Shown here: positions 1-27,683 of the stretch, one piece after another
Numbering within the stretch: position 1 is the first letter of the stretch
How the letters are laid out: the number at the start of each line of letters is the position of its first letter
DNA from: a virus
Lineage: Duplodnaviria > Heunggongvirae > Uroviricota > Caudoviricetes
IMG/VR virus record: IMGVR_UViG_2534681663_000017
Span: 1-37,827 of that record
Reading direction: 5' to 3' (one strand)
DNA: 37,827 nt
The notes under the pieces: generated by a model
The model's database searches: none
What the model saw: the letters and a program-made list of their open reading frames with translations, nothing else
What the model was told of the DNA's origin: nothing
Position numbers and translations under genes: made by a program

Positions 1-468
1 TTAATTTAATCGGCTACGATAAAAGTCTCTTGTTATGTTGCGATCGATGACTACTTCACAACGTGCTGAAGGTCTGTAACCCTCACGAGCCTTAATCCAT
101 GGTTCTTCTTTATGAGTCATATCTTCAAGTTGTGCGCCAGAAAAAGCACCGTAGACTTCAAGAACGCCATCAATATGAGCTGCGGTTGCGGCTGGAATGG
201 ATGAAAGATCAAACCCAGGAGTGCGATCTGCAATCGTTATGTCCGAATACAGTGATTTTGTAGAAGAGAACCGGTTATAAATCGCACGGCTTACTGGGCC
301 ATGAATCCAAGCTTGAAACTCCTCATCCACTAACTTTTTATCGAAAAAAGCTAGATACCAAGCATCTGCGTAATAAGCTAATTTTTGCAGCTTCAAATTA
401 GACATAGTTTCACCTGAAGCTAAGATTTTTGTGATGATGTAATCACATAATTGGTTAATATTTATCAT
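1..468 (-). CDS. Panacea-domain (DUF4065, GepA/SocA-like) phage-associated protein, putative antitoxin-type module
   Basis: 155-aa ORF; N-terminal region KLQKLAYYADAWYLAFF...FQAWIHGPV matches the conserved Panacea-domain pattern from memory; ATG at 468 preceded by GAGGGA Shine-Dalgarno on the minus strand; AT-rich. Confidence 0.55.
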   Translation of the reverse strand: MININQLCDYIITKILASGETMSNLKLQKLAYYADAWYLAFFDKKLVDEEFQAWIHGPVSRAIYNRFSSTKSLYSDITIADRTPGFDLSSIPAATAAHIDGVLEVYGAFSGAQLEDMTHKEEPWIKAREGYRPSARCEVVIDRNITRDFYRSRLN

Positions 469-4798: not shown

Positions 4799-5652
4799 GC
4801 ACCATCCTGAAATGGGCGGGTAATAAAACCGCCATTATGTCCGAACTGAAAAAATACCTTCCTGCTGGCCCGCGACTGGTTGAACCTTTCGCGGGTTCTT
4901 GTGCTGTGATGATGGCGACGGATTACCCCAGCTATCTGGTTGCGGATATTAATCCTGATTTAATCAACCTCTATAAAAAGATTGCCGCTGATTGCGAAGC
5001 GTTTATATCTCGTGCCAGAGTTTTATTTGAGGAAGCAAACAGTGAGCTGGCTTATTACAACATAAGACAGGAGTTTAATTACTCAACTGAAATTACTGAT
5101 TTCATGAAGGCGATATATTTCCTGTATCTCAATCGTCACGGTTACCGTGGTTTATGTCGCTATAACAAGAGCGGGCATTTCAACATTCCCTACGGTAATT
5201 ATAAAAATCCGTATTTCCCTGAAAAAGAAATTCGCGCATTTGCAGAGAAAGCCCCGCGGGCAACGTTTATCTGCGCCAGCTTTGATGAAACGCTGGCGAT
5301 GTTGAAGGCGGGGGATGTGGTGTATTGCGATCCGCCGTATGACGGTACGTTTTCCGGCTATCACACTGATGGTTTCACTGAAGATGACCAGTATCACCTG
5401 GCATCCGTTCTTGAACATCGGTCGTCAGAAGGTCATCCGGTCATTGTTTCTAACAGTGACACATCCCTGATTCGTTCGCTGTATCGCAATTTCACTCACC
5501 ACTACATCAAGGCAAAACGCAGCATCGGCGTGTCGGCTGGCGAGAGTAAATCTGCAACAGAAATCATTGCTGTTTCCGGGGCGCGCTGCTGGGTGGGATT
5601 TGATCCTTCGCGTGGCGTGGATAGTTCTGCTGTGTACGAGGTGCGTGTATGA
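4795..5652 (+). CDS. dam: DNA adenine methyltransferase (Dam-like, N6-adenine MTase)
   Basis: Starts [11 protein letters not shown] (ATG 4795, overlapping the previous stop as ATGA); contains FAGSCAV SAM-binding-like motif and catalytic DPPY (CDPPYDGTF). Confidence 0.85.
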
Positions 5653-8063
5653 GTCATGCCGATATGAGCGACTCTAGCGGCTTTAACGAGGCCGCTGCAG
5701 CATTTTCATGGAACGGCCCGAAAAAGGCCATAAACCCTTATCTGGACCCGGCGGAAGTTGCGCCGGTTTCTGCGCTTTCAAACCTGATCACTCTGTATGC
5801 TGCCGATAACGAGCAGGAACAGCTGCGCCGCGAGGAATTGAGTGAACAGGTCTGGGAGCGTTATTTCTTTAATGAATCCCGTGATCCTGTCCAGCGCGAA
5901 ATGGAGCAGGATAAGCTCATTAGTCGGGCAAAGCTGGCGCATGAGCAGCAGCGTTTTAACCCGGACATGGTCATTCTGGCGGACGTCAGCGCCCAGCCCA
6001 CCCACATCAGCAAGCCGCTGATGCAACGTATCGAATACTTCAGCAGCCTGGGCAGGCCAAAGGCTTATTCCCGCTATTTGCGTGAGACGATTAAGCCATG
6101 TCTGGAGCGACTGGATTGTGTACGCGACAGTCAGCTATCTACTTCTTTCCGTTTTATGGCAAGCCATCAAGGGCTGGAGGGCCTGCTGATCCTGCCTGAA
6201 ATGAGTCAGGATCAGGTGAAACGCCTGTCCACCCTGGTAGCTGCGCATATGAGCATGTGTCTTGAGGCCGCTTGTGGTGATTTGTATACCAACGATGACG
6301 TAAAGCCAGAAGAAATCCGCAAGACATGGGAAAAGGTGGCAGCGGAAACCCTGCGTCTGGATGTTATCCCGCCTGCGTTTGAGAAACTTCGTCGGAAAAG
6401 AAACCGCCGCAAACCTGTGCCCTATGAACTCATACCGGGTTCGCTGGCACGTATGCTTTGCGCCGACTGGTGGTATCGAAAATTGTGGAAGATGCGTTGC
6501 GAATGGCGGGAAGAGCAGTTGCGTGCTGTCTGTCTGGTCAGCAAAAAAGCATCTCCCTATGTCAGCTATGAAGCCGTGATGCATAAACGTGAGCAGCGCC
6601 GCAAGTCGCTGGAGTTTTTCCGTTCTCATGAACTGGTGAACGAAGACGGAGACACGCTGGATATGGAAGATGTGGTAAACGCCAGCAGCAGCAACCCGGC
6701 ACATCGCCGCAATGAGATGATGGCCTGCGTTAAAGGTCTGGAGCTTATCGCGGAAATGCGCGGTGACTGCGCCGTTTTCTACACCATCACATGTCCGTCA
6801 CGTTTCCATTCCACGCTCAATAACGGCAGGCCCAACCCGACCTGGACAAATGCGACGGTAAGACAAAGCAGCGATTATCTGGTCGGCATGTTTGCTGCAT
6901 TTCGTAAGGCGATGCACAAAACCGGGTTGCGCTGGTATGGCGTACGGGTGGCTGAGCCGCACCATGACGGTACTGTGCACTGGCATCTCATGTGTTTCAT
7001 GCGCAAAAAAGACCGCCGCGCCATTACTGCATTGTTGCGTAAGTTTGCCATCCGTGAAGACCGCGAGGAGCTGGGCAATAACACGGGCCCACGCTTTAAG
7101 TCTGAGCTGATAAACCCACGCAAAGGAACGCCGACAAGCTACATCGCAAAATACATCAGTAAGAACATTGACGGGCGTGGTCTGGCTGGCGAGATCAGCA
7201 AGGAAACGGGTAAATCCCTGCGTGATAACGCCGAATACGTTAATGCCTGGGCGTCTCTGCATCGTGTTCAGCAGTTCCGCTTCTTTGGTATTCCGGGGCG
7301 CCAGGCTTACCGTGAACTGCGATTGCTGGCTGGTCAGGCGGCAAGACAACAGGGTGACAAAAAAGCAGGTGCGCCGGTACTGGATGATCCGCGTCTTGAT
7401 GCCATCCTGGCTGCTGCTGATGCTGGTTGTTTTGCCACCTACATCATGAAGCAGGGCGGCGTACTGGTTCCCCGCAAATATCACCTTATCAGAACAGCTT
7501 ATGAAATTAACGAAGAGCCGACTGCCTATGGCGATCACGGTATTCGTATTTATGGCATCTGGTCACCCATTTCAGAGGGCAAGATCTGCACTCATGCAGT
7601 GAAGTGGAAAATGGTTCGTAAGGCCGTTGACGTTCAGGAGGCGGTAGCCGACCAGGGCGCTTGCGCCCCTTGGACTCGTGGCAATAACTGTCCCCTTGCT
7701 GAAAATTTGTACCAACAAGGGAAAGACAAATCAGCTGATGGGGGCTCCAGAACGGACATTACCCGCATGGATGACAAGGAATTGCACGATTACCTGCACA
7801 GTATGAGCAAAAAAGATCGCCGGGAGCTGGCAGCAAGGTTGCGCTTGGTGAAACCGAAACGGCGTAAAGACTACAAACAGCGAATTACAGATCATCAGCA
7901 TCAGCAGCTCGTCTATGAACTGAAGTCCAGAGGATTTGATGGCAGCGAGAAAGAAGTCGATTTGCTCCTTCGCGGTGGCAGTATTCCGTCAGGAGCAGGC
8001 TTGCGTATCTTCTATCGGAACCAGCGTTTGCGGGAAGATGATAAGTGGCGGAACCTGTATTAA
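5649..8063 (+). CDS. A: Replication initiation endonuclease, P2 gpA family (rolling-circle initiator)
   Basis: 804-aa ORF; HUH-like metal motif [11 protein letters not shown] and paired-tyrosine region YIAKYISKN, as recalled for P2 A; start overlaps dam stop (ATGA). Confidence 0.9.
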
Positions 8064-8158
8064 TTACGCGGGTTAACAATTCGTGCTCTTAATAATACCA
8101 GGCATATCAGGCTGATGAACGTAAAAAAACGTTTTACATCAGTAAGATTATTATATAC

Positions 8159-8174
8159 TGTAAATATAAACAGT
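8159..8174. promoter_or_regulatory. LexA (SOS) box CTGT-N8-ACAG
   Basis: CTGTAAATATAAACAG (flanks TACTGT...ACAGTG) matches the E. coli LexA operator consensus; lies 43 bp upstream of the small ORF/DinI-like operon. Confidence 0.6.
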
Positions 8175-8216
8175 GGTTATGTATACAGCATTTCTTGTGG
8201 TGTCATAGGAGGAAAG

Positions 8217-8405
8217 ATGCAGGACTATTTTTTGGAGTCTTTGAAGCTCCAGCGCATTGATTTTTTTCTTAAGCTTGTAGCGGCTAGTGAGTGTAGTGAT
8301 GAAGAGAAGGGGCTGGCTTTGCAGTGGGGTTCTGAACTAACAGATGAACTCATGGCAAAAATCAGAACCCACGAATACAACCGCTCAATGGATGTCATCA
8401 GTTGA
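8217..8405 (+). CDS. Small hypothetical protein, first gene of LexA-box operon (possible N-terminal part of a Tum-like antirepressor)
   Basis: 62-aa ORF from ATG 8217 with AGGAGG 3 nt upstream; ends 10 bp before the DinI-like gene. Confidence 0.4.
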   Translation: MQDYFLESLKLQRIDFFLKLVAASECSDEEKGLALQWGSELTDELMAKIRTHEYNRSMDVIS

Positions 8406-8415
8406 GGTGACTTTT

Positions 8416-8649
8416 ATGCGCATTGAAATAATGATCGATAAAGAGCAGAAGATTAGCCAGTCTATCCTGGACGCCCTTGAATCCGAGCTTTACCGCAATC
8501 TGCGCCCCCTGTATCCCAAAACGGTAATTCGTATCCGCAAAGGTAGCTCTAACGGTGTGGAACTGACCGGACTGCAACTGGACGAAGAAAGAAAACAAGT
8601 GATGAAAATTATGCAGAAGGTGTGGGAAGACGACAGCTGGCTGCATTAA
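8416..8649 (+). CDS. DinI-family protein (Tum C-terminal-domain-like)
   Basis: MRIEIMIDKEQ...ILQKVWEDDSW aligns by eye with E. coli DinI (MRIEVTIAK...ILQETWESADDW); GAGGTGA upstream of ATG 8416. Confidence 0.75.
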   Translation: MRIEIMIDKEQKISQSILDALESELYRNLRPLYPKTVIRIRKGSSNGVELTGLQLDEERKQVMKIMQKVWEDDSWLH

Positions 8650-8651
8650 GA

Positions 8652-8694
8652 AACGTTGCTGGCGTCTGAACTTGCTTCTGACGTCAGCAACGTT
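8652..8694 (+). terminator. Hairpin after DinI-like gene (15-bp stem, one mismatch)
   Basis: AACGTTGCTGGCGTC ... GACGTCAGCAACGTT inverted repeat immediately after the stop; no strong T-tract, so terminator function is uncertain. Confidence 0.3.
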
Positions 8695-8915
8695 GAACAA
8701 CTAGTTTAGTGGGGCATTAGTCATGGGGTAAAATACAGTAACCATTATTTTCACTTCCGCTCAGATTTAACCGAACGTTAGTTTTGCTACGTATGATGGG
8801 CTGCAAATTACCTTTTGGGATTTGTGATAGATACGAAAATCCTATTAGATGCTTGTTAGACCGGAAGCGCCACTTCGAACGAAAAGTAATGGCCACTTAT
8901 GCCGGTTTAAAAGCC

Positions 8916-9446
8916 TTAACCTTGTATAGTTATTTGAATATTTTCTTCATTGACACCAAAGTATAGGGCTAGCCCTGCTTTTGCCTCCTGAAGTGTTAAC
9001 GGCTTAACTACATTTTCTTCTTCTTCTTCGTACTCATCACCCGCTTGATCGACAATCGAATTAGTCGGGGTTAATTTTGGAAGAGCTTTAAATTCCAACT
9101 TGTCAGCCTCAATGCCAATGTCTTTGAGGTTGCGATAAGAAACGGGATTCCGATTGCCATCCCATTGTCCTGGGATGTCAATTTCAGCATAAGAATTGAT
9201 GTTTATGATCCAGCGTTTAGGGTTTTCTGGAGCCCTGCTTACTCCCGAGATTCGACCGATCATAAAAGCATGATGATGTTTTGCTTCTTGTGATCCCCAG
9301 TCCTTTCTCGAATTTTGTACACAAACTAAATATTCGTGCTTAGCTGCATGGCTGGCGTCAAGTCTCCATGCTTGGCTTCCCCCTGTGTTCAAAATCTCTG
9401 TTAAACCACGAGCAGTAAGTACAGTAATACAGTTGGTAGTAGCCAT
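8916..9446 (-). CDS. Hypothetical cargo protein at the old/tin-equivalent position (acidic EEEEE stretch), candidate defence or accessory gene
   Basis: 176-aa ORF on the opposite strand to the early operon, RBS GGAGTCAC before ATG 9446, AT-rich codon usage; no motif recognised. Confidence 0.55.
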   Translation of the reverse strand: MATTNCITVLTARGLTEILNTGGSQAWRLDASHAAKHEYLVCVQNSRKDWGSQEAKHHHAFMIGRISGVSRAPENPKRWIININSYAEIDIPGQWDGNRNPVSYRNLKDIGIEADKLEFKALPKLTPTNSIVDQAGDEYEEEEENVVKPLTLQEAKAGLALYFGVNEENIQITIQG

Positions 9447-9763
9447 TGAATTGTGACTCCGTCTTTTTTAGAGAAATACTATTGATGAATGTAGTTTACG
9501 TATTTTTTTATTGAGTAGTCAAGTTAGTATTCTGCTCGTTATTGGCTGTTTTTTGAGTGTTGTGAGTTAGTACTTTGTGTAGTACCTCTTGGTTTATGAG
9601 GGTTAAATCTAAGTTATGACAAAGGGAGGCAGGGGGAACGCGCAGCGCAAGGGGTACAGGAGGCCATAAGGACTCACTTGAAGTAAGAAAAGATCGATAA
9701 AGCAACAATGCATGTCTATGCCGCATGAATTCGCATGATCGTTTGAGGATCGTTTTAGCTGAG

Positions 9764-9791
9764 GCCCGCTAGGAATGGCGGGCTTTTGTTT
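9764..9791 (+). terminator. Rho-independent terminator-like hairpin (GCCCGC-loop-GCGGGC + TTTTGTTT)
   Basis: 6-bp GC stem, 8-nt loop, followed by a T-tract; located just upstream of the cos-like motif. Confidence 0.4.
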
Positions 9792-9832
9792 ATGTCATGC
9801 AAGTGCATGAAAACCACTACATAAAGCGGGCA

Positions 9833-9851
9833 GGCGTGGCGGGGATACGAG
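9833..9851 (+). other. Candidate cos site (cohesive-end motif GGCGTGGCGGGGA...)
   Basis: GGCGTGGCGGGGATACGAG followed by GCGCGC resembles the 19-nt cohesive ends recalled for 186 (GGCGTGGCGGGGAAAGCAT) and P2 (GGCGAGGCGGGGAAAGCAC); orientation relative to Q is as in P2. Match is partial and recalled from memory. Confidence 0.35.
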
Positions 9852-10133
9852 CGCGCGCACCTTCTAATAATTACAAAGTCATTGAGATATGCAGGGGATA
9901 TTCTATATTTCATTTAATCGATATACCCAACCGAGCTACTAGATTGATTGTGCAAAGTTAATCAACTAACTATTAGGTGAAAATATATTCCCAATAGTTA
10001 TCATTCAGATTTATTTAATTCCTCGTTCGTATCATTTTTTATTTACCAATAAGCTGTGTGATTTTTATGTTAAATTAACGGCAATAGCATAATATGTTGT
10101 GAAAATGTGATGAGATCTACTTGATATTATTTT

Positions 10134-10139
10134 TATAAT
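10134..10139 (+). promoter_or_regulatory. Perfect -10 hexamer TATAAT upstream of the cargo operon (weak -35)
   Basis: TATAAT at 10134..10139 in an AT-rich leader about 80 bp before the 10217 start; no good -35 at 17-bp spacing. Confidence 0.25.
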
Positions 10140-10216
10140 GGTGTTAATTGTTAGTCAGCTAAACGGTGTTACATTTTATTTTCAACGAAATTAAGTTTTT
10201 GTCATGGAGAGGCTTT

Positions 10217-11038
10217 ATGAAGGTTAGTTTTGATGTTGTTATTAAAAGTGGTGCTTATGATGTTGATATGGATTACGCGCTTAAAACATTAGCTGGTACA
10301 TCGAATGTAGTTTGCCTTTTGGCAGAAGCGATACTTCGTGGAAGAATTATTGAACGGCGTACCCATGCAAATGATATCAGAGCAAAGCTTAAACACAGTT
10401 TTCCGGGTTCTTATGGTCAAAAATTTGACATCGAGATAAATGACTCGACACTGATTTCTCGTTTGAATTCTATGGGACGTAGTGTTTTCTCTGAAGTAAT
10501 GAGTTACTATATTTGTGAAGCGCTATATGTTGAGCATAATGGTTTGACAGATGCAGCACAGAAAATCATTGATAGTTTAGTTGCAATAGAGGATGAGCTT
10601 ACAAAGCGAATTCGTTCCCCACTAAAAGATATGCATAAAGTCACTACAATGAATGGTTATAATGTTGAGTTATCTTATCGAAAACCTGGATCACCAGAAA
10701 ACATTATAACGTTGACACCAGAAACTGAGATTAATATTTCAGATACTGAAATACTACAGGTTTCCCATGATATATCTGTAATCATAACTCGTTTTAATTC
10801 AATGACAGGAAATGGTCGACTTATACTTGAAGGGTATGAAGAACATGGCACTGTAGCATTTGGATTTTATGATAATTTAAGATATGTAACAGAAAACCAT
10901 AAAAGACAAATCACTCAAAACTTGCATCACAATAATGGCCTTCCATCAGATAGATGGCAATATATGAATTTAACTGTAAGTGATATGGTTCTTCCTAGTG
11001 GGGATGTTATTAAATATCTAATTCGTAATATACCTTGA
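10217..11038 (+). CDS. Hypothetical soluble protein, gene 1 of AT-rich two-gene cargo operon (candidate defence sensor/partner)
   Basis: ORF track starts at GTG 10166; ATG 10217 has GGAGAGG upstream (273 aa). No recognisable catalytic motif; strongly AT-biased codons. Confidence 0.6.
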   Translation: MKVSFDVVIKSGAYDVDMDYALKTLAGTSNVVCLLAEAILRGRIIERRTHANDIRAKLKHSFPGSYGQKFDIEINDSTLISRLNSMGRSVFSEVMSYYICEALYVEHNGLTDAAQKIIDSLVAIEDELTKRIRSPLKDMHKVTTMNGYNVELSYRKPGSPENIITLTPETEINISDTEILQVSHDISVIITRFNSMTGNGRLILEGYEEHGTVAFGFYDNLRYVTENHKRQITQNLHHNNGLPSDRWQYMNLTVSDMVLPSGDVIKYLIRNIP

Positions 11039-11048
11039 TAGAGTTATT

Positions 11049-11744
11049 ATGAAAATTCACTCTATTAAAATCTTTGCTGCATTAGTAATTATAATTACGT
11101 GGTTGAGTTATTTTGCAAAGTTTGGTGATTGGTTTAACTTCTCGAGTGATACGGCTGTTTGGGGGCAGTTTGGGGATTTTTTAGGAGGGGTGATTAATCC
11201 ACTGCTTACATTTATATCTGTTGTTTACTTGATTAACTCTGTAAATCTTCAGCGAGAGGCGAACGCTAGCCTGATTGCGCTTGAAGAGTTTAAGAAAACT
11301 GAGACCAAATTTTATAACATGCTTGAGTCACAACGAAGTGGCTTCGAAAGCTTTAAAATTGTAGATAGTGTGGATGGGAAACCTTTAGTTATCAAGGACG
11401 GTGACGCGGTTACATATATTGAGGATGTTGTTGTAGAAATGGTAATCCAAGGAAGTACAAAAGGAGAAATCTCAAATAAAATAGGTGGAATGGATAAAGC
11501 GGATAATATATTTAGTATAGTGAGGCGCTTTCATAATATTATTAAGTTGATTAAAAGGGAAATTCCGGAAAACTTAAGAAGTGAATATTATGATAGTTTA
11601 GTTAATATGACTGAGTATAAGCAAATATGTCTTATATTAATATCAATGGAGCTTTTTGATTGGCCTATTTTAAGTAGCATTGATGAAAGTGGTGTGTTTA
11701 ATATTGAGGCATTAATGGAATATAGAAAAGCATTTAGACCATAA
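11049..11744 (+). CDS. Two-TM membrane protein, gene 2 of cargo operon (candidate membrane effector)
   Basis: 231 aa; two N-terminal hydrophobic helices (IKIFAALVIIITWLSYFAKF and FGDFLGGVINPLLTFISVVYLI) then a charged soluble domain; starts 10 bp after gene 1. Confidence 0.65.
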   Translation: MKIHSIKIFAALVIIITWLSYFAKFGDWFNFSSDTAVWGQFGDFLGGVINPLLTFISVVYLINSVNLQREANASLIALEEFKKTETKFYNMLESQRSGFESFKIVDSVDGKPLVIKDGDAVTYIEDVVVEMVIQGSTKGEISNKIGGMDKADNIFSIVRRFHNIIKLIKREIPENLRSEYYDSLVNMTEYKQICLILISMELFDWPILSSIDESGVFNIEALMEYRKAFRP

Positions 11745-11750
11745 CTGAAT

Positions 11751-11786
11751 AAGAAACAATGCTTAGGCATTGTTTCTTGTGTTTAT
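11751..11786. terminator. Terminator hairpin between cargo operon and portal gene (12-bp perfect stem)
   Basis: AAGAAACAATGC-TTAG-GCATTGTTTCTT followed by GTGTTTATAAT; sits between the convergent 3' ends of the two-TM gene and Q. Confidence 0.55.
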
Positions 11787-11788
11787 AA

Positions 11789-12820
11789 TCAATCAAGGTT
11801 ATATTTTTTGAATTGAATAATTTTATCTTCTAGCCATTCATTAACTTCTTTCATCCTTTTTTGTAATGGTAAAAGTTCATTTCGAACAAAAACATTCGCT
11901 GCCTTCTCCACATCCCCAAATCCCCCAACATTATTCGGCATTATCCCCATCATTTGTGGCGGCACACGATGCGCCGCCATCATGTCGTCCCGGCTCACGT
12001 TCTTGATATTCAGGAACTCATCCTTCGCCGCCACTTCTGACAACGGGATAATCTGAAGCCCGTCCTTTTTACCGTTAGGCGAGTACATAAACAGGTTACG
12101 GAAGTTACCAGGACCTTTGGCGCTTTTCATCGCATTGCGGAGGTTGTTCACATCCTCCTGGTTCTGCGCAGCATCGGTCATGTACATGATGAAGCCTGCA
12201 TGACTGCCGTTAATGTAATACTTGCGGCGGAACAGCGTGGCGGACTCGTTGAGCAGAGCTGACGGAATGGCAGAAAGATAACCGGGCAGGCCGTAGATCT
12301 CCTGGTTGATGTCCGGTTCCATCAGATGAAAAATGCTGCCTTTCGTGAACTGATACGGCTGGGGTGTCATACCGTATTGCACAAACCAGTAGGTATCCAG
12401 GTCTAACCCGCGTCGGGTGTATTTTGCCAGCGCAGGCTCAAGGGCGATAACTTCACCGAATCGGTTCGTGCGTTTCTCCAGGTAGGCGTTACCAAATACC
12501 AGATAGTCCTGCACAAAACGCGAAAAAGCCTGCTGGCTGAGCAGCGGATGAGGGATATAGGTACTGGTCAGAATGTTGCACTTTACTGCAATCGGGGAAC
12601 TGTGATGCACGGCAGCGCGGAAGGTGCGCGCCAGTCCGTCAAAGCTGACGGGCGGCTCATACCAACGGTCCATCTGTACGCATTCCACATAGTCCAGCAG
12701 TTCTCGGCGGTCCAGAACAGGAACGGGATCGCCGAAGCTGAATGCTTCGGCTGTAGTCTGGTTTTTAAGCTGGATCTGTTTCGTCGCCGCAGCGCGGTTC
12801 TTCTTACTCTTTCCCATCAA
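11789..12820 (-). CDS. Q: Portal (capsid) protein, P2 gpQ family
   Basis: 343-aa ORF, size and position match P2 Q; translationally coupled to P upstream on the minus strand. Confidence 0.9.
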   Translation of the reverse strand: MMGKSKKNRAAATKQIQLKNQTTAEAFSFGDPVPVLDRRELLDYVECVQMDRWYEPPVSFDGLARTFRAAVHHSSPIAVKCNILTSTYIPHPLLSQQAFSRFVQDYLVFGNAYLEKRTNRFGEVIALEPALAKYTRRGLDLDTYWFVQYGMTPQPYQFTKGSIFHLMEPDINQEIYGLPGYLSAIPSALLNESATLFRRKYYINGSHAGFIMYMTDAAQNQEDVNNLRNAMKSAKGPGNFRNLFMYSPNGKKDGLQIIPLSEVAAKDEFLNIKNVSRDDMMAAHRVPPQMMGIMPNNVGGFGDVEKAANVFVRNELLPLQKRMKEVNEWLEDKIIQFKKYNLD

Positions 12821-14583
12821 AAAATCTCCACAATATTGCTGGTATTGGCGGATTCGCCCTGCAGCGGTTCGTTAAACAGTGCGTGCATTGTTGCCCAGGC
12901 CAGATCGGCGTGGCTGGCTTCTTCGCTGCGGCTGGCTTCATAGGTCGGGCGGTTGCCGCTGGCGGTGGTTGCGCGACGGATTGCCATGAATGACTGCGCA
13001 ATGTCGGTGTGTCCGGCGTCAAACTCCAGACGGCGGTGGCTGATAATGTCGTAGGCCTTGAGTACCAGGGCGTTTTTAACGTTGGGATTGTAGACAAACT
13101 CCCTGACGGCAGGAAAAAACGCTTTCACGTTCTCGTAAACCCCGTGACCGACGCCGGTCGAGTCGATGCCGATATAGGTCACGTTATACTGTTCGGTCAG
13201 TTTTTTGATGGCGTCAGCCTGGGCGCGGAAGTCCATCCCGCGCCACTGGTGACGCTCAAGAATGCGGAACTTACCGCCCGGCACGGCTGGCGGTGCCACC
13301 ACCACGCATCCGGCGCTGTCGCCGTTCTGTGTACCTTTTGCCGGGTCATAACCGATCCAAACCTCGCGCCAGCCAAACGGGCGCAGCGCCAGTGCATGAA
13401 AGTCGGTCCAGACTTCCCAACTGTCCACCATGCACGCCTGCAGCTCGCTGAGCGGGAACACGGACGCGAGATCGTCCACGAACTCACACATCAGCAGGTT
13501 CTGGTATTCGTCCGGGCTGTACTCCATGCGCAACTGGTCGAGATCGAACAGGTTACAGCCGCCGCGCACCGCATCTTCCACGGTGACTATCTGGCGGTAT
13601 TGCCCGTCTGCGCACAGCAGGCCGGGGGCCAGATTGTTGTGGGACAGGTCGATGTCCACCTTATCGGCTTTGTTGCGCCCACGATTGAACAGCGCACCGG
13701 ACCAGAACGGATAAGCACTGTGGGTCAGGCTGGATGGCGTGGAAAAATAGGTTTGTCGCCATTTTTTGTGAATAGCCATACCGGAAGCCACTTTGCGCAG
13801 CTCCTGAAATTTCGGTATCCAGAAATATTCATCCAGATACAGGTTGCCGTGATAACTCTGGGCCGTGCGGGCATTGGTGCCGAGGAAGTAAAGCGTGGCA
13901 CCGTTAGGAAGCACCATCGGATCACCTTTCAGCTCCACCTCCACTTCTTTGGCGAAGTCGATGATGTACTGCTTAAAGACGTAGGCCTGTGCCTTGCTGG
14001 CGGAAAGGAAAATCTGGTTACGTCCGGTCAGCAGGGCGTCAATCAGGGCTTCACGGGCAAAATAGAAGGTTGCGCCGATCTGGCGTGACTTCAGCAGGTT
14101 GCGGATGCGGTTGGTTTTTCCGGCTTCCCACCAGTGGCGCTGGTAGTTGAACATGGAGGAATGGAAAATTTCTTCCAGCTTCTCAATCTGTTCATCGGTG
14201 AAAACGTTCTTTTCCGGCTGACGGCGTGGGCCTTTGTTGCGGTTGGCGACGTTAGGGTTTAAGTCGGATTCGTTGCCGCCATTGTTAAACTTGCCGATCC
14301 GCGCGTGGCGTTCCGACTGGCGCGCCAGCAGGTCAATCTCTTTGAAATCTTTCCCTTCTTTGTGCTCCTTCATAATGAGCTGGCAGTAGCGTGCGGCGGT
14401 GGTGAGCTGCATCTGATCCAGCGGCCCATAGTCACCCCACTTGTCGCGTTTTTTCCAGCTGTGAACGGTTGCAACTTTCTCGCCCAGCATTTCAGCAATG
14501 CGGGCTACGCGGTATCCCTGAAAGTACAGCAGCATGGCCTGCCGACGGGGATCGAGATCTGCGGGTGTCAGTGTGGTGTTCAT
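12817..14583 (-). CDS. P: Terminase large (ATPase) subunit, P2 gpP family
   Basis: 588 aa; Walker-A-like SRQIGATFYF region and P2-P-like length; divergent from the O-N-M-L operon. Confidence 0.9.
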   Translation of the reverse strand: MNTTLTPADLDPRRQAMLLYFQGYRVARIAEMLGEKVATVHSWKKRDKWGDYGPLDQMQLTTAARYCQLIMKEHKEGKDFKEIDLLARQSERHARIGKFNNGGNESDLNPNVANRNKGPRRQPEKNVFTDEQIEKLEEIFHSSMFNYQRHWWEAGKTNRIRNLLKSRQIGATFYFAREALIDALLTGRNQIFLSASKAQAYVFKQYIIDFAKEVEVELKGDPMVLPNGATLYFLGTNARTAQSYHGNLYLDEYFWIPKFQELRKVASGMAIHKKWRQTYFSTPSSLTHSAYPFWSGALFNRGRNKADKVDIDLSHNNLAPGLLCADGQYRQIVTVEDAVRGGCNLFDLDQLRMEYSPDEYQNLLMCEFVDDLASVFPLSELQACMVDSWEVWTDFHALALRPFGWREVWIGYDPAKGTQNGDSAGCVVVAPPAVPGGKFRILERHQWRGMDFRAQADAIKKLTEQYNVTYIGIDSTGVGHGVYENVKAFFPAVREFVYNPNVKNALVLKAYDIISHRRLEFDAGHTDIAQSFMAIRRATTASGNRPTYEASRSEEASHADLAWATMHALFNEPLQGESANTSNIVEIF

Positions 14584-20094: not shown

Positions 20095-20533
20095 ACTGCA
20101 GAAGGTGGACGACTGGCTGAGTGCTTTGCTGGCGAATCTGGAACCAGCCGCAAGAAGCCGCATGATGCGCCAGCTGGCGCAGGAACTGCGCCGGACACAG
20201 CAGCAGAATATCAGGATGCAGCGCAACCCTGATGGCAGCAGCTATGAACCTCGACGGGTAACAGCACGCAGTAAAAAGGGGTGCATCAAACGTCAGATGT
20301 TTGCAAAGCTGCGCACCACAAAATACCTGAAAACTGCCGCCAACGCCGACTCTGTCAGTGTGCAGTTTGAAGATAAGGTGCAGCGCATTGCCCGCGTTCA
20401 CCATTATGGCCTGCGTGATCGAGTTAGATATAAGGGGCCAGAAATACGTTATACAGAGCGACGTCTATTAGGCTTCTGCACTGAGAGTAACGATGCTATT
20501 AGTATAATTTTACTTCGTTATCTAACTAGTTGA
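20087..20533 (+). CDS. S: Tail completion protein, P2 gpS family (C-terminal about 35 codons AT-rich and probably remodelled by the downstream insertion)
   Basis: GTG start overlapping R stop; N-terminal two-thirds GC-rich and S-like, while the last ~110 nt are AT-rich like the adjacent island. Confidence 0.75.
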   Translation: MAELQKVDDWLSALLANLEPAARSRMMRQLAQELRRTQQQNIRMQRNPDGSSYEPRRVTARSKKGCIKRQMFAKLRTTKYLKTAANADSVSVQFEDKVQRIARVHHYGLRDRVRYKGPEIRYTERRLLGFCTESNDAISIILLRYLTS

Positions 20534-20605
20534 TATGTCTTGTTTTTTGTGGGTTTTTATAACATCATATTGGCTCTGTTATAAATAGTATGGAGAGTTT
20601 GATTG

Positions 20606-21811
20606 ATGAAAAAAAATAACGATATCAATAAACAAGTAAAATCAGAAACAGAAAATAATTCATCTGCAAATATGAATGGAAGTGGCTCGGATGAAATCCT
20701 TTCTAAGAGCACCTCTGGTACGGTGGTATGGGGAGATAACAGTTTTGGAAGTATTTCTAAATATATTAATGAGGTACTCGGTAAGAATTTATATTTAGAT
20801 ATAATTAAATCTCTTGATGCTAAGTTGAAAGCACCAGTTCAAGCTAATAGAACTACTATATTAAAGAACCTGAAGGGTAATTTCAAAGAGGAAAATCTTG
20901 TGCTTGTATTAGGCGCTGGAATTTCTTTGGATTATAAAATACCTACATGGGATGAATTATTAAGGAGGTTGCTTGCTAGAGCGTTACAAGATACTAATGA
21001 AAATCAGCAAGTTGTTGCGACATTATTTAATCAGGTGTTCGGGCCAAATGCTTTGATTGCGGCTAGATATTTAAAGTTACATTTTGAAAGTGCTAACACT
21101 CCTCTTGAGAAAGAAATTCAGAAAGTGTTATATCAATTTTATGATAGCACCGAGAGTCAAACGCTTAAGGCGATAAAGAAATTATGTATTTCTGCGGGGA
21201 AGGCTCCGGGGTTAGATTCTGTCATAACATATAATTATGACGACATACTAGAGCAAACATTACAAAACGCAGATGTTGGTATTAAATTTAAGGTTATATA
21301 TAAAACTGGGCAGCATGCAAAAAAAGATGAGTTGCCAATATATCATGTTCATGGATATCTTCCCTTAAATGGTAAGATTGATAGTGATGACAGCCTAGTT
21401 TTATCGGATGAAAGTTATCATCGGCAATATATGGATTTATATCACTGGAGTAATATGGTTCAGTTGAATAAATTCAAAGACAATAATTGTTTGTTTATAG
21501 GACATTCCTTTACTGATCCAAATTTAAGACGTCTGCTTGATGCTGCTAAAAAGTTAAGGGGTAATGATTCTAAACCTCATTACTTAATAAAATGTCGACA
21601 CTCAAAAGATGATGTTATAAATAAAATTCTAAAAGGTTCACGTCAAGATTTGAATGACGGGCTAGTCGACGATATAGACAATGTTGCCCGTTCTTTATTA
21701 GATACTGTACATAAATTTGAAGAAATTGATGCTAACTCTTTTGGTGTTAATGTTATATGGATTGATAATTTTACTGAAATAGGCCCCATAGTAACTGATT
21801 TAACTCAATAA
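20606..21811 (+). CDS. Standalone SIR2-like (sirtuin-fold, putative NAD+-consuming) protein, candidate anti-phage defence effector
   Basis: 401 aa from ATG 20606 (GGAGAG upstream); motifs LVLVLGAGISLDYKIPTWDELL, YNYDDILEQ and IYHVHGY match the SIR2-like domain pattern seen in defence-associated sirtuins; AT-rich island between S and V. Confidence 0.8.
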   Translation: MKKNNDINKQVKSETENNSSANMNGSGSDEILSKSTSGTVVWGDNSFGSISKYINEVLGKNLYLDIIKSLDAKLKAPVQANRTTILKNLKGNFKEENLVLVLGAGISLDYKIPTWDELLRRLLARALQDTNENQQVVATLFNQVFGPNALIAARYLKLHFESANTPLEKEIQKVLYQFYDSTESQTLKAIKKLCISAGKAPGLDSVITYNYDDILEQTLQNADVGIKFKVIYKTGQHAKKDELPIYHVHGYLPLNGKIDSDDSLVLSDESYHRQYMDLYHWSNMVQLNKFKDNNCLFIGHSFTDPNLRRLLDAAKKLRGNDSKPHYLIKCRHSKDDVINKILKGSRQDLNDGLVDDIDNVARSLLDTVHKFEEIDANSFGVNVIWIDNFTEIGPIVTDLTQ

Positions 21812-21821
21812 ATCTTGTTTT

Positions 21822-21860
21822 AGTTGTGCCGGCAATGGCACAACTGTCTTAAGTTATTTT
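21822..21860 (+). terminator. Perfect 9-bp hairpin plus T-tract after the SIR2-like gene; the same dyad is a TGT-N12-ACA motif (21825..21842)
   Basis: AGTTGTGCC-GGCAAT-GGCACAACT followed by GTCTTAAGTTATTTT; contains TGTGCCGGCAATGGCACA (TGT-N12-ACA). Confidence 0.45.
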
Positions 21861-21889
21861 CCTAATAATATTTTTGTAAGTTGTGTGCC

Positions 21890-22468
21890 ATGAACGCACA
21901 ACTTACAGAAATCATGCGCCTTATCACCAACCTGATCCGCACTGGTGTAGTCACCGAAGTGGACCGGGAAAACTGGCTTTGTCGGGTGAAAACGGGCGAC
22001 CTTGAAACCAACTGGATTAACTGGCTGACGCTGCGCGCGGGTAATGCCCGCACATGGTGGAAACCATCGGAAGGTGAGCAGGTGGTGCTGCTGAGTCTGG
22101 GCGGCAATCTGGAGACCGCCTTTGCGCTGCCCGCTGTCTATTCGAATCAGTTCGCACCACCGTCGACGTCGGCGGACGCCTGCGTGACAGAACATCCTGA
22201 CGGTGGCTGGTTTGAATACGAACCCGCCACCGGGCGCTGGTATGTCAGGGGCATCAAATCAATGGTCATTGAGGCCGCTGACAAAATCACCATGAAAACC
22301 AGTGAGTTTGTACTGGAGGCTGACCGCACGCGCATTAACAGTGAAGTGGTGATCAATGGTGGCGTTACCCAGGGCGGCGGTGCAATGAGTTCTAACGGAA
22401 TTGTGGTTGATGCACATCAGCATACTGGCGTCCTGAAAGGCGGCGACACAACCGGAGGCCCGGTATGA
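21890..22468 (+). CDS. V: Baseplate assembly/spike protein, P2 gpV family
   Basis: N-terminus MNAQLTEIMRLITNLIRTGVVTEVD resembles P2 V as recalled; ORF track starts 9 nt earlier at TTG. Confidence 0.8.
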   Translation: MNAQLTEIMRLITNLIRTGVVTEVDRENWLCRVKTGDLETNWINWLTLRAGNARTWWKPSEGEQVVLLSLGGNLETAFALPAVYSNQFAPPSTSADACVTEHPDGGWFEYEPATGRWYVRGIKSMVIEAADKITMKTSEFVLEADRTRINSEVVINGGVTQGGGAMSSNGIVVDAHQHTGVLKGGDTTGGPV

Positions 22469-23719: not shown

Positions 23720-24317
23720 TCTGCTGCCACCGGGTTCAACGCCACTGGAGCGCCGACTGGCGCAAGCGTGTAGCGGGATTTCTGATCTGCAGGTGCCGCT
23801 GCGTGACTTGTGGAATCCGGCAACCTGTCCGGTCAGTTTCCTGCCTTATCTCGCCTGGGCGTTCTCTGTGGATCGCTGGGATGAGGGCTGGACAGAAAGC
23901 GTCAAACGCCAGGTGGTGAAGGATGCTTTTTATATTCATCAGCATAAAGGAACCACCAGTGCCGTGCGGCGGGGGGTGGAGCCGTTCGGCTTTCTGATCC
24001 GCATTATTGAGTGGTGGCAGACCGGAGAGACACCGGGCACGTTTCGCCTGGATATCGGCGTGCAGGACCAGGGCATCACTGAAGATACCTATCTGGAACT
24101 TGAGCGACTGATAAGCGATGCCAAACCATGTAGCCGTCACATGATCGGCATGTCCATCAATCTGCAGACCAGCGGCCCGCATTGGGTGGGAGCCGCCAGC
24201 TATCTTGGCGAAGAAATCACGATCTATCCGTATATCAACGAAACAATTATTTCCGGCGGCACCGCGCATGAAGGCGGGGCGGTCCATGTTATTGACACAA
24301 TGAGAGTGAATCCATGA
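23712..24317 (+). CDS. I: Baseplate/tail-fibre attachment protein, P2 gpI family
   Basis: 201 aa, coupled to J and H. Confidence 0.75.
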   Translation: MNSLLPPGSTPLERRLAQACSGISDLQVPLRDLWNPATCPVSFLPYLAWAFSVDRWDEGWTESVKRQVVKDAFYIHQHKGTTSAVRRGVEPFGFLIRIIEWWQTGETPGTFRLDIGVQDQGITEDTYLELERLISDAKPCSRHMIGMSINLQTSGPHWVGAASYLGEEITIYPYINETIISGGTAHEGGAVHVIDTMRVNP

Positions 24318-25705
24318 GCACAAAATTTTATACCCTGCTGACGGATATTGGCGCGGCGAAACTTGCCAGCGCCACCGCGCTCGGTGTGCCGCTAAAAATT
24401 ACCCATATGGCGGTGGGCGATGGCGGCGGAACATTGCCAACGCCGGACGCAAAGCAGACTGCACTGGTAAATGAGAAACGCCGGGCTGCGTTGAATATGC
24501 TCTATATCGACCCGCAGAACAGCAGCCAGATTATTGCTGAACAGGTGATCCCTGAAAACGAGGGCGGTTGGTGGATACGTGAAGTGGGCCTGTTTGATGA
24601 ATCAGGTGCATTGATTGCCGTGGGCAACTGCCCGGAAAGCTACAAGCCGCAACTGGCTGAAGGCAGCGGGCGTACCCAGACCGTGCGCATGGTGCTGATT
24701 ACCAGCAGCACGGACAATATCACCCTGAAAATCGACCCTGCTGTAGTGCTGGCAACCCGCAAGTATGTGGATGACAAGGCACTGGAGCTGAAGGTGTACG
24801 TGGATGACCTGATGGCAAAACATCTTGCCGCGCCGGACCCGCATTCACAGTATGCACCCAAAGAAAGTCCAACGTTTACCGGAACCCCCAAAGCGCCAAC
24901 GCCAGCGGCGGGGAATAATACCACGCAGCTTGCGACCACCGCATTTGTTCAGGCGGCACTGACGGCTCTTATTAATGGTGCGCCAGCCACGCTGGACACG
25001 CTGAAAGAAATAGCCGTAGCCATTAACAATGATCCGAAATTCAGTACCACCATTAACAATGCGCTGGCACTGAAAGCGCCGCTGTCGAGTCCGGCACTCA
25101 CTGGAACGCCAACAGCCCCCACTGCGGCGCAGTCGGTCAATAATACACAGATTGCCACTACGGCTTTTGTGAAATCAGCGATTGCAGGAATAGTGGGTTC
25201 TGCACCTGCGGCACTGGATACACTGAACGAACTGGCGGCGGCACTGGGGAATGACCCGAACTTTGCCACGACAATGCTTAATGCACTGGCAGGTAAACAA
25301 CCGCTGGACAATACGCTGACTAATTTGAGTGGAAAGGATGTAGCTGGTCTTCTCACATACCTTGGTTTGGGAGAAGCCAGATATGTCATTCAGCGAGGAG
25401 CTAATGCCAATGGTGCATGGGTACGCTGGTCAGATGGTGCAATAGAAGTATTTGGAACCGGTGGATCTAATGATAATGGACTGGCTAAAGTCGTTTACCC
25501 AATTGCACTGCCTAAACTTTCACGTTTTATCAGTATCGCAGAAAGAATAAGAACGGATTACGAGAGCACACCTAATAATGTTCACGTTTCAATGATCGTG
25601 GATGATCAGGTAACAAATACCGGCTTTTATGCCCGCTGCCAGATGTACGACGGCAGACCATCATCAAATGCTTTTTCATGGAGGGTTTATTGTGCGCCTG
25701 TTTAA
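24314..25705 (+). CDS. H: Tail fibre protein, gpH family; C-terminal ~110 aa encoded inside an invertible segment
   Basis: 463 aa; internal ~60-aa tandem repeat (SPxxTGTPxAPT...TTQxATTAFV...LDTL...NDPxFxTT) at about 24869..25290; recombination site at codon ~346. Confidence 0.85.
   Translation: MSTKFYTLLTDIGAAKLASATALGVPLKITHMAVGDGGGTLPTPDAKQTALVNEKRRAALNMLYIDPQNSSQIIAEQVIPENEGGWWIREVGLFDESGALIAVGNCPESYKPQLAEGSGRTQTVRMVLITSSTDNITLKIDPAVVLATRKYVDDKALELKVYVDDLMAKHLAAPDPHSQYAPKESPTFTGTPKAPTPAAGNNTTQLATTAFVQAALTALINGAPATLDTLKEIAVAINNDPKFSTTINNALALKAPLSSPALTGTPTAPTAAQSVNNTQIATTAFVKSAIAGIVGSAPAALDTLNELAAALGNDPNFATTMLNALAGKQPLDNTLTNLSGKDVAGLLTYLGLGEARYVIQRGANANGAWVRWSDGAIEVFGTGGSNDNGLAKVVYPIALPKLSRFISIAERIRTDYESTPNNVHVSMIVDDQVTNTGFYARCQMYDGRPSSNAFSWRVYCAPV
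24869..25290 (+). repeat. In-frame tandem repeat (two ~60-codon units) within tail fibre gene H
   Basis: Protein-level repeat SPTFTGTPKAPTPAAGNNTTQLATTAFV...DPKFSTTINNALA / SPALTGTPTAPTAAQSVNNTQIATTAFV...DPNFATTMLNALA. Confidence 0.6.
25350..25375. promoter_or_regulatory. Left recombination site (gix/hix-like, 12+2+12) of the invertible segment
   Basis: TTCTCACATACC TT GGTTTGGGAGAA; 22/26 match to the reverse complement of the site at 27036..27061; lies inside H at ...LTYLGLGE. Confidence 0.65.
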
Positions 25706-25889
25706 TCCAGTTACTTTGACTGAAGTAATCCCCGGTCTTCATGACGTGACCGGGGCTATTGAATTACCGGAGGACAACTGGTTTTTTACTATGACAGAAA
25801 TTCCTCAGGGCATGGAGCTAACAATTAATGAGAAAGGCGAACCAATACTGATTGAGGTTAATCAGTCTCAGGGAATACAGGCCAAATAA
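25692..25889 (+). CDS. Short ORF downstream of H in the current orientation (possible small or truncated tail-fibre chaperone)
   Basis: GTG 25692 with GGAGGG 6 nt upstream; only 65 aa, far shorter than typical tail-fibre assembly proteins; overlaps the convergent minus-strand gene by 32 nt. Confidence 0.3.
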   Translation: MRLFNPVTLTEVIPGLHDVTGAIELPEDNWFFTMTEIPQGMELTINEKGEPILIEVNQSQGIQAK

Positions 25890-26463
25890 TATCAGGCGCG
25901 GTGCTGGTATCTATTGCCGTCACCGCGTCAATGTAATCCAGCACAGCGTTAAGGCGGGTTGTTTCTGCCTGCGTCAGTTTACGTCCGGCCTGCAATTTCA
26001 GCTGAATCAGACTGATGGAAGCCATAGCAGCATCAATCAGAGACTGGCGCTGTACTTCTGCTGCATCTACTGCGGCGCTATGCTGTGCCTCGGTATCTGT
26101 TACCCATTTCTCACCATCCCATTTATCGTATGGCGTTAATGGGGCAAAAGTGGTCGTATTTTCAGGGTAATCCCCCGGCACAGTAATTTCTTTTGATTCC
26201 CCCGTTTCGATGCCATAGACAATTTCACCGCGATGGTCTGACACATATTCCCATGAGTTAAAATCTGCAGAACGGCAGATTGCATAACCAGCCTTATGTG
26301 TGCCGGGCGCATCGGTACAGGAATTGGCAGGAATACCCACCCCCACAGGCAGATACTCAACCGATGAGGATATGTATTCGCGGGTGTCGCCCCGGTAGTT
26401 GTACACAGTGATTTCTCCTGCCACGGTGGCAATAAACGCACTGTTTAATTTTGCTTTCGCCAT
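25858..26463 (-). CDS. Tail fibre assembly protein (Tfa/U'-like) in the inverted-orientation cassette
   Basis: 201 aa; C-terminal region ...RLNAVLDYIDAVTAIDTSTAPDIIWPVFPE resembles the conserved Tfa C-terminus; start overlaps the stop of the upstream alternative fibre segment (TAATG). Confidence 0.7.
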   Translation of the reverse strand: MAKAKLNSAFIATVAGEITVYNYRGDTREYISSSVEYLPVGVGIPANSCTDAPGTHKAGYAICRSADFNSWEYVSDHRGEIVYGIETGESKEITVPGDYPENTTTFAPLTPYDKWDGEKWVTDTEAQHSAAVDAAEVQRQSLIDAAMASISLIQLKLQAGRKLTQAETTRLNAVLDYIDAVTAIDTSTAPDIIWPVFPETD

Positions 26464-27061
26464 TATGCAGCCCTCACGATGTAGTTAAATGCAATGTTGC
26501 GCGGACGGGTTTCAGATGCGTACACGGACGGATGAGTAACACCGTCTGAGGTCGATGCCCTGTAAGTCCTGAATGGTGGTAATCCGGTCGCTATTGCGTT
26601 GTTATTACCTGTTGGTGAAAGGTCCTTGCGATAAAGGATTACCTTGTCTGCCCTACTGGTTGCGTCCCATGATGTTCCTGACGACGATGGACTCAGGGCC
26701 GCACTGGGTATTTCTGGTACATCGTTGAAAACCGCATAGATATCGCTTTCCATCTGGTCTGACGGATTACCCACTCCGGTTGGCAGAGCGTGCGCATGGT
26801 CCTGGAAAGCAAAACTCTGACAACTGAGAAGTATGCGCCCCTCATCAATCCCTCGCCCGTCATCCCAGCCACGAATAAACTCACCACGTAAATCTGGCAA
26901 TTTATTTGTCGGGTAAGCCTTTGCCAGTTCCGGGTATTCTTCAGCAGAAAAAGCCGCACCATTGCATTTCAGCCAGCCTGTTGGCGGAGTGGCTGAAGGC
27001 CACGGAACAGGGACACCAACAGGTAATGCAGAGCCTTCTCCCAAACCAACGTTTATGAAAA
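26463..27061 (-). CDS. Alternative tail-fibre C-terminal segment (Sv'-like, tail-collar-type motif); no independent start, expressed only after inversion
   Basis: Minus-strand reading frame carries GLGE at the crossover then ...LPVGVPVPWPSATPPTGWLKCNGAAFSAEEYPELAKAY...LPDLRGEFIRGWDDGRG, a phage tail-collar-like pattern; frame is open through the right gix-like site. Confidence 0.6.
27036..27061. promoter_or_regulatory. Right recombination site (gix/hix-like) of the invertible segment
   Basis: TTCTCCCAAACC AA CGTTTATGAAAA, inverted relative to the left site, 55 bp upstream of the invertase start. Confidence 0.65.
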
Positions 27062-27116
27062 TGCAGAGATAATGGCTAACTGGCATCATCCCCGGTTTTT
27101 ATTCAGGGGGATGCTC

Positions 27117-27683
27117 ATGCTTATTGGCTATGTACGCGTGTCAACAAATGACCAGAACACCGATTTGCAACGTAATGCACTGAACTGCGCGGGATGTGAG
27201 CGGATTTTTGAGGATAAAATCAGTGGCACTAAGTCCGACAGACCAGGGTTGAAAAAACTGCTCAGGACACTATCGGCAGGAGACACGCTGGTTGTCTGGA
27301 AGCTGGACAGGTTGGGGCGCAGTATGCGGCATCTTGTTACGCTGATAGAAGAGTTGCGTCAGCGAGGCGTGAATTTCCGAAGCCTGACTGACAGTATTGA
27401 TACCAGCACCCCAATGGGCCGTTTCTTTTTTCATGTCATGGGTGCCCTGGCTGAAATGGAACGCGAACTGATAGTTGAACGTACCAGGGCAGGGCTGGCT
27501 GCAGCTCGTGCCAAAGGCAGAGTAGGTGGACGCCGTCCTAAGTTGACCACCGAACAGTGGGCACAGATTGGGCGTTTACTCGAGGCCGGAGAATCAAGAC
27601 AGCGTATTGCACTGATTTTTGATGTGGGCGTTTCTACCATTTATAGAAAATTTCCGGCGAATGAGAACAATGAATCGCCCTGA
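27117..27683 (+). CDS. Serine DNA invertase (Gin/Hin/Pin/Cin family)
   Basis: Starts MLIGYVRVSTNDQNTDLQRNAL... (ATG 27117, GGGGGA upstream); near-identical by eye to Mu Gin as recalled, including catalytic Ser in YVRVST and a C-terminal HTH. Confidence 0.9.
   Translation: MLIGYVRVSTNDQNTDLQRNALNCAGCERIFEDKISGTKSDRPGLKKLLRTLSAGDTLVVWKLDRLGRSMRHLVTLIEELRQRGVNFRSLTDSIDTSTPMGRFFFHVMGALAEMERELIVERTRAGLAAARAKGRVGGRRPKLTTEQWAQIGRLLEAGESRQRIALIFDVGVSTIYRKFPANENNESP

Follow-up and report, generated by a model that had tools for sequence, protein, structure and literature searches.

The 37,827-nt stretch of viral DNA analysed here, termed the window (IMG/VR record IMGVR_UViG_2534681663_000017, class Caudoviricetes), is by gene order and gene products a P2-like prophage. 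Between its cos-like site and its portal gene lies an AT-rich operon of two genes, referred to here as gene 1, for a soluble protein, and gene 2, for a membrane protein (Table 1). The cassette is swappable foreign cargo in the P2 hotspot between gpA and gpQ. Profile comparisons place the gene 2 product as a divergent, short and remote member of the AbiC/AbiP (putAbiC) superfamily, homologous over its full length. Hotspot location, obligate pairing of the two genes, AbiC/AbiP homology, the biology of that family and the activity rate of P4 hotspot loci make it reasonably probable that the pair forms a mobile two-component anti-phage module of the AbiC/AbiP type, guarding the lysogen from competing phages. 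An anti-phage role is thus a credible candidate function, predicted from sequence.

The exchange of the cassette can be read from a sister prophage. In E. coli 1297KP, the aligned part of 8001-9858 is 99.8% identical to the window; homology stops at 9858 and restarts at 11794, which delimits the variable slot given in Table 1. In place of the pair, the 1297KP slot holds a 561-amino-acid 'ATP-dependent nuclease' that is Old-like. The slot begins at a conserved non-coding element with 80-96% identity across 96 P2-like phage records. This element includes a strong hairpin (9761-9786) and, at 9833-9845, the single copy in the window of a cos-like core, GGCGTGGCGGGGA, which we take to resemble the cohesive ends of P2 and 186. 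The left breakpoint of the slot falls about 7 bp past the 19-nt position expected for the cos-like site, so cargo exchange seems to occur at the edge of the packaging signal. Base composition gives the same picture as the 1297KP comparison: the G+C fraction is 0.33-0.36 over 10001-12000, against 0.52-0.59 from 12001 on and 0.41-0.55 upstream. Both lines of evidence agree with the description of the locus, in an earlier note made from the sequence alone, as a foreign two-gene cargo operon.

The cassette is also rare relative to its surroundings. The left 12 kb of the window is matched in 1355 of 5426 complete E. coli genomes, the cassette in only two. The prophage of strain Q5 shares about 95% backbone identity with that of the window; its block comprising cos element, cassette and portal gene (9709-13500) is 98% identical, while 8722-9708 differs. 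Hence the stretches to the left and right of the cos element vary independently, as two sub-slots of the hotspot. The sub-slot on the gpA side (8722-9708) holds in the window a 176-amino-acid open reading frame (ORF; 8916-9446, minus strand) with no Pfam or PADLOC match, and in Q5 two different hypothetical genes.

In P2, the cos-proximal region between gpA and gpQ is a defence hotspot that houses old and tin (Rousset et al. 2022, PMC9122126). The window pair is placed likewise, between replication gene A and portal gene Q and adjoining the cos-like element, and the content of its slot varies between otherwise near-identical prophages. The Old-like nuclease of 1297KP sits in the identical slot by the portal gene, but the proteins (an ATPase-TOPRIM nuclease, and Tin) are unrelated to the pair. 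On the P2 map, old and tin presumably lie on the gpA side of cos; the window pair lies on the portal side.

The anatomy of the operon is as the earlier note had it: the ORFs, the base composition and the RNA fold bear out two tightly linked AT-rich genes, separated by 10 nt (11039-11048), between cos-like site and portal gene and followed by a perfect 12-bp hairpin. Although the list of ORFs gives a 290-amino-acid version of gene 1 from a GTG at 10166, the start is assigned to the ATG at 10217 because of the conserved N-terminus of the homologues (MKVSFDVVIKSG) and the sequence GGAGAGG at 10206-12. The hairpin, read directly from the sequence, consists of the arms AAGAAACAATGC (11751-62) and GCATTGTTTCTT (11767-78) around the loop TTAG. 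Its predicted RNA fold has a free energy of -18.5 kcal/mol (z = -5.7), and none of 200 shuffled sequences was equally stable. It was scored as terminator-like in a scan; its T-tail is weak (GTGTTTATAAT), and it ends 10 nt short of the convergent stop codon of the portal gene. Upstream of gene 1, a site matches the promoter consensus, and its -10 hexamer coincides with position 10134, where the earlier note had the operon begin; such matches in the AT-rich DNA are no more frequent than chance (15 found, 11.6 expected). Both ORFs are real genes: they have many homologues, and the ratio of non-synonymous to synonymous substitution rates (dN/dS) is 0.02-0.14 wherever dS is unsaturated and estimable, a sign of purifying selection on both.

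The AlphaFold model of the gene 2 protein (predicted local distance difference test score, pLDDT, 85) starts with a first transmembrane (TM) helix at residues 3-25, followed by a short loop and a long helix (35-100) that combines the second TM segment with a stalk, and then by a β-hairpin (103-116) and a helical domain. Hydropathy peaks at about 1-27 and 41-67. Together, model and hydropathy uphold the two N-terminal TM helices and the C-terminal domain proposed earlier. This large domain is probably cytoplasmic, and the charge distribution weakly favours a cytoplasmic location of both termini. After the short loop, WGQFGDFLGGVINP opens the second TM helix (about 41-63), where conservation is highest (0.80); it is lowest at residues 101-140. 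The segment WGQFGDFLGG, singled out in the earlier note as conserved, is indeed the most conserved part of the protein.

The relationship to AbiC and AbiP emerges only at the level of profiles. None of the 18 aligned members of the gene 2 family, nor gene 2 itself, matches putAbiC (PF16872) even at E <= 1, and PADLOC gives no match for them either. A profile of the family, run against 1.84 billion representative proteins, collects 6544 relatives, and reaches three distant ones (P0215, P0223 and P0230) at about 1e-19. These three pass the Pfam putAbiC model at 43-93 bits (cut-off 22), and match the PADLOC models for AbiC (about 1e-5) or AbiP (2e-11). Alignment of the gene 2 family with P0230 by hhalign gives 98.8% probability and E = 6.5e-17 over 242 columns, including the region of the putAbiC domain. 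The signature WGxFGDxxGGxxNP is common to gene 2, to the putAbiC-positive relatives and to the putAbiC protein of P2 system no. 86 of Rousset et al. (2022). Gene 2 thus shares with AbiC and AbiP an N-terminal membrane anchor, which like that of AbiC has two TM helices, a helical soluble domain behind it, the signature, and carriage on mobile elements. It differs in falling below the Pfam and PADLOC thresholds, in its length (231 amino acids, compared with about 300-430 in the putAbiC-positive relatives seen here), and in being accompanied always by a gene for a 273-amino-acid partner.

This partner, the gene 1 protein, has an N-terminal α/β domain, similar to DUF7946, and a C-terminal OB-like β-barrel, similar to DUF7947, which carries an invariant TRFNxxTGNGR loop. 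The barrel is small and five-stranded, and can be superposed on OB folds. The family comprises about 130 clusters at 90% identity, all of about 273 amino acids, from Enterobacterales, Aeromonas, Vibrio, Chromobacterium and Chitinimonas. The window protein itself matches only DUF7947, at 12.3 bits (Pfam gathering score 27 bits). Among 48 family members, 31 have weak matches to DUF7947 and 12 to DUF7946; the best scores, 26.3 and 24.3 bits, have the two domains in the right order, DUF7946 then DUF7947, and all lie below the 27-bit cut-off. On these scores, gene 1 would be a relative of DUF7946+DUF7947 proteins just below threshold. Family scans, including Pfam, found no DNA-binding, helix-turn-helix, ribbon-helix-helix or known antitoxin domain in it.

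In the earlier note, neither product had been recognised as belonging to a known family. This has to be amended for gene 2, as a remote AbiC/AbiP relative, and, with the reserve due to a near-threshold match, for gene 1. The profile and structure searches that the same note had suggested yielded the AbiC/AbiP homology and the OB-like barrel. A sequence-profile search of the PDB had no match for gene 1, and its one match for gene 2 (T5 exonuclease, E about 0.3) is at noise level. Foldseek found nothing in the PDB for gene 1 at E <= 0.001, which leaves the N-terminal domain of gene 1 without an assignment. Direct scans of both proteins with Pfam, NCBIfam and PADLOC gave nothing useful. Nor did a match to phage morphogenesis or packaging proteins appear, which the earlier note had named as grounds for giving up a defence role: in PHROGs the two proteins are assigned to phrog_13337 and phrog_8999, both of 'unknown function', Pfam and NCBIfam are silent, and the pair also occurs on plasmids.

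A possible kinship of gene 1 with another hotspot protein was considered and rejected. System no. 30 of the P4 hotspot (Rousset et al. 2022, Table S1B) consists of a 299-amino-acid soluble protein and a protein with four TM helices. Comparison of its soluble protein with gene 1 by hhalign was not significant, and its match to DUF7946 is weak (E = 0.019); these results lend no support to a scheme in which proteins like gene 1 team up with a range of TM effectors. A partnership of DUF7946-like proteins with other membrane proteins is conceivable, but too weakly supported to build on.

The two genes travel together. A scan of viral contigs gave 22 loci, 20 of them with complete downstream sequence; in all 20, a gene for a two-TM protein with the motif WGQFGD..GG..NP lies directly downstream of gene 1, the two genes overlapping slightly or being up to about 60 bp apart, and in 19 a P2-type portal gene faces the pair in convergent orientation. 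Elsewhere, the pair adjoins a lambdoid replication module and insertion sequence (IS) genes in Chitinimonas arctica. In Vibrio cholerae (loci L026 and L027, 8001-9568) it directly follows a filamentous prophage (Rep_trans, Zot) near rtxA, presumably the chromosomal region where CTX-type phages integrate. Two metagenome contigs with the pair were reached via a distant gene 2 relative. It is also found on IncX1 conjugative plasmids and on a 6.1-kb ColRNAI-type (ColE1-type) plasmid, and a 4.7-kb Klebsiella plasmid also has a gene 1 homologue. On plasmids, in Vibrio and in the metagenome loci the two genes overlap by 4 bp. Its hosts include E. coli, Salmonella, Klebsiella, Yersinia and Vibrio cholerae, where it is carried by phages, satellites and plasmids. 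With six unrelated kinds of mobile context, the pair is not tied to P2 biology. Among sequenced phages, megablast with the cassette found no match, and a protein search found one distant copy, in a Klebsiella phage.

The proteins also diverge in step (Mantel r = 0.90, 0/5000 permutations), with gene 2 the more divergent in 94% of comparisons. A search for fusions of gene 1 and gene 2 (Rosetta-stone test) found none among 148 representatives of the gene 2 superfamily. Unlike the single-gene anatomy of AbiC and AbiP, the gene 2 subfamily always has its gene 1 partner; this sets the branch apart, as the putAbiC-positive relatives examined are solo.

Two distant AbiC-like proteins, P0020 (L030, 3-476) and P0199 (L032, 1457-2212), have no gene 1 partner. 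Their neighbours have in common a Cys-rich C-terminus (…CANxRRGSIxYRECRK…HEECRTWRAR…SFNPMG), and may represent a different partner family for another AbiC-like branch.

The locus has been recorded before. The exact window proteins, WP_001710113 and WP_001710114, are listed as 'hypothetical' in Table S5A of Rousset et al. (2022). Homologous pairs appear in the same study as P2 system no. 77 (Table S5B; 50 occurrences), which is the pair of locus L004, and as system no. 31 of the P4 satellite hotspot (Table S1B; 49 occurrences), both given without domains or function. They belong to the same two families as the window pair, but their identity to it is only about 50% for gene 1 and 40% for gene 2, and neither is among the systems tested in that study. 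To call the system undescribed, as the earlier note did, is therefore too strong; the pair is already catalogued as uncharacterised cargo, and as a two-component form of a known kind of Abi it is no categorical novelty. Moura de Sousa et al. (2026) do not describe it among their new systems, and a literature search with the two DUFs, the PHROG families, the accessions and putAbiC/AbiC-like as terms found no study of the pair and no reported test. Membership in PD, Rst, Kiwa or another catalogued system was rejected, since PADLOC gives no match for either protein at E <= 1. In having a soluble and a membrane component and in occupying the same hotspots, the pair may be likened to the hydrolase + TM system of Rousset et al., to Kiwa and to Hailong, but it has no sequence relationship to them.

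What is known of the AbiC/AbiP family bears on the possible mode of action. AbiC (Prf), with two TM helices, and AbiP, with one, are proven lactococcal Abi proteins whose soluble domains superpose (PMC13064643). AbiC reduces the production of major capsid protein; AbiP arrests phage DNA replication and needs its TM anchor, and its soluble domain binds RNA in preference to single-stranded DNA (PMC13064643). The two proteins of the operon would be translated together and assemble at the inner membrane into a complex that has gene 1 and the C-terminal domain of gene 2 in the cytoplasm. In an uninfected cell, gene 1 may hold gene 2 inactive, or may be needed for gene 2 loading. Upon infection, a phage product, most likely a nucleic-acid intermediate or a late protein, would contact either the barrel of gene 1 or the AbiP-like cytoplasmic domain of gene 2. 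Gene 2 might then halt the phage via its conserved Gly/Pro/Asp-rich TM hairpin, with loss of membrane potential; alternatively, it might act as AbiC and AbiP are reported to do, by blocking replication or late protein synthesis of the phage. In either case the predicted end result is abortive infection. The conserved hairpin may form a pore or may serve only as an anchor.

The division of labour is probably different from that first proposed, in which gene 1 was the sensor and gene 2 the effector. That AbiC and AbiP act as single genes suggests that gene-2-like proteins can sense and act alone; as AbiC-type proteins need no partner for defence, recognition and action probably both reside in gene 2. 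That gene 2 evolves faster than gene 1 does not fit a simple scheme of a variable sensor combined with a conserved effector. This faster change is concentrated in the cytoplasmic domain, and fits gene 1 more readily as a regulator, co-sensor or neutraliser; one of these roles is more likely for gene 1 than that of 'the' sensor. More specifically, and only tentatively, an OB-fold-like cytoplasmic protein may license or restrain an AbiC-type membrane protein, in a distinct immune module that Gamma- and Betaproteobacteria harbour on phages, satellites and plasmids.

Several points weigh against an anti-phage module. With gene 2 itself as query, Pfam, PADLOC and NCBIfam give no match even at E <= 1, so that its link to AbiC is by transitive profile homology only, and those putAbiC-positive relatives that could be placed on contigs are solo genes. 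AbiC and AbiP are themselves single-gene systems whose mechanisms are unsolved (PMC13064643); the homology therefore yields no mechanism for the pair. Motif strings of the pair do not occur in the table of tested systems of Rousset et al. (2022), and the pair is missing from the supplement of Vassallo et al. as well. Only three of eight further P2 hotspot candidates were active (Rousset et al. 2022, PMC9122126); the P4 figure speaks for the module, with phage protection by six of eight unknown hotspot loci picked at random (Moura de Sousa et al. 2026). Lastly, the ColE1-type and IncX1 copies adjoin dinQ-like type I toxin genes, a setting that suits addiction equally well.

This last point leads to an explanation that we regard as unlikely, namely an addiction module similar to toxin-antitoxin (TA) systems, in which gene 2 would be a membrane toxin and gene 1 its neutraliser, stabilising the mobile element with no anti-phage role. 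The upstream gene overlapping or abutting the downstream one and the strict co-inheritance of the pair are as expected for such a module. Gene order and the 4-bp overlaps in homologues also match the layout of type II TA pairs, in which a small DNA-binding antitoxin is encoded upstream of the toxin. Gene 1, however, is large (273 amino acids) and has none of the domains searched for above; the pair resides in two independent phage and satellite defence hotspots, and the gene 2 relatives AbiC and AbiP are anti-phage proteins (PMC13064643). Addiction and defence are moreover not exclusive, as many Abi systems are also TA systems, and both roles can coexist.

An improbable alternative is superinfection exclusion at the inner membrane, where DNA entry or early steps would be blocked without killing of the host. 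Prophage membrane proteins often act in this way, and gene 2 is a small prophage-encoded inner-membrane protein whose TM hairpin is its most conserved part. A simple entry block would, however, need neither a large conserved cytoplasmic domain nor a soluble cytoplasmic partner, and the reduced capsid protein and arrested replication reported for AbiC and AbiP are effects after entry (PMC13064643). Least probable is a moron unrelated to defence, with a host-fitness, envelope or phage-own function such as lysis timing or lysogenic conversion: only part of the tested hotspot cargo is active (Rousset et al. 2022) and both families are of 'unknown function' in PHROGs, but the six mobile contexts, the AbiC/AbiP homology of gene 2 and the substitution of an Old-like nuclease for the pair in the sister prophage all speak against it.

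A two-component AbiC/AbiP-type defence module remains the preferred reading. The locus reveals a branch of the AbiC/AbiP superfamily, with an obligatory partner, that current defence-annotation models miss. Were the pair active, it would be a new entry in the defence catalogue, would explain some of the cargo listed as 'unknown' in P2 and P4 hotspots, and would provide an E. coli model for phage arrest by AbiC-type membrane proteins. If the proposed interplay of the two proteins is correct, it would open a first route, in tractable E. coli, into the AbiC/AbiP mechanism and the role of the invariant WGxFGDxxGGxxNP TM motif.

Table 1. Features of the operon, its slot and the surrounding prophage (positions in the window).
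Feature	Position	Strand	Remarks
Gene 1	10217-11038	plus	273 aa, soluble protein
Gene 2	11049-11744	plus	231 aa, membrane protein
Promoter-like site	10110-10139	plus	ATGAGA, 18-nt spacer, TATAAT; consensus match upstream of gene 1
Hairpin ending the operon	11751-11778	plus	perfect 12-bp stem, 4-nt loop
Variable cargo slot	9859-11793	plus	from cos element to portal stop codon; contains the whole AT-rich cassette
Conserved non-coding cos-region element	9709-9858	 	150 bp; left edge of the cargo slot
P2-type portal gene (gpQ)	11789-12820	minus	right border of the hotspot; context, outside the system
Integrase, CI, CII, Dam-like methylase, replication endonuclease A, DinI		 	in this order from the integrase end; replication endonuclease A at 5649-8063
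Terminase	12817-14583	minus	after the portal gene
Head, then lysis and tail genes		 	after the terminase

Three further loci in the window deserve mention. A second island of low G+C fraction (0.31-0.37) at 20501-22000, between the tail-completion genes and baseplate gene V, contains a gene (20603-21811, plus strand) for a 402-amino-acid SIR2_2-domain protein (Pfam SIR2_2, 1.4e-21; PADLOC LmuA, 8e-22, and ThsA, 1e-19). At the corresponding position, strain Q5 has an AIPR-family gene. The island probably serves this prophage as a further slot for defence cargo.

Just outside the integrase end of the prophage, and cut by the window edge, lies a gene for a SocA/Panacea-domain protein (1-468, minus strand; Pfam 2e-19). 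In 1297KP, the SocA/Panacea gene is followed by a hypothetical gene of 251 amino acids, and the two may form a Panacea-type TA pair at the attachment site.

Finally, the region 24314-27683 begins with a tail-fibre gene (24314-25705, plus strand), followed by two minus-strand ORFs, for a tail-fibre assembly protein (25858-26463) and a tail-collar-domain protein (26463-27089), and by a plus-strand ORF (27072-27683). This arrangement could be an alternative or invertible tail-fibre cassette.

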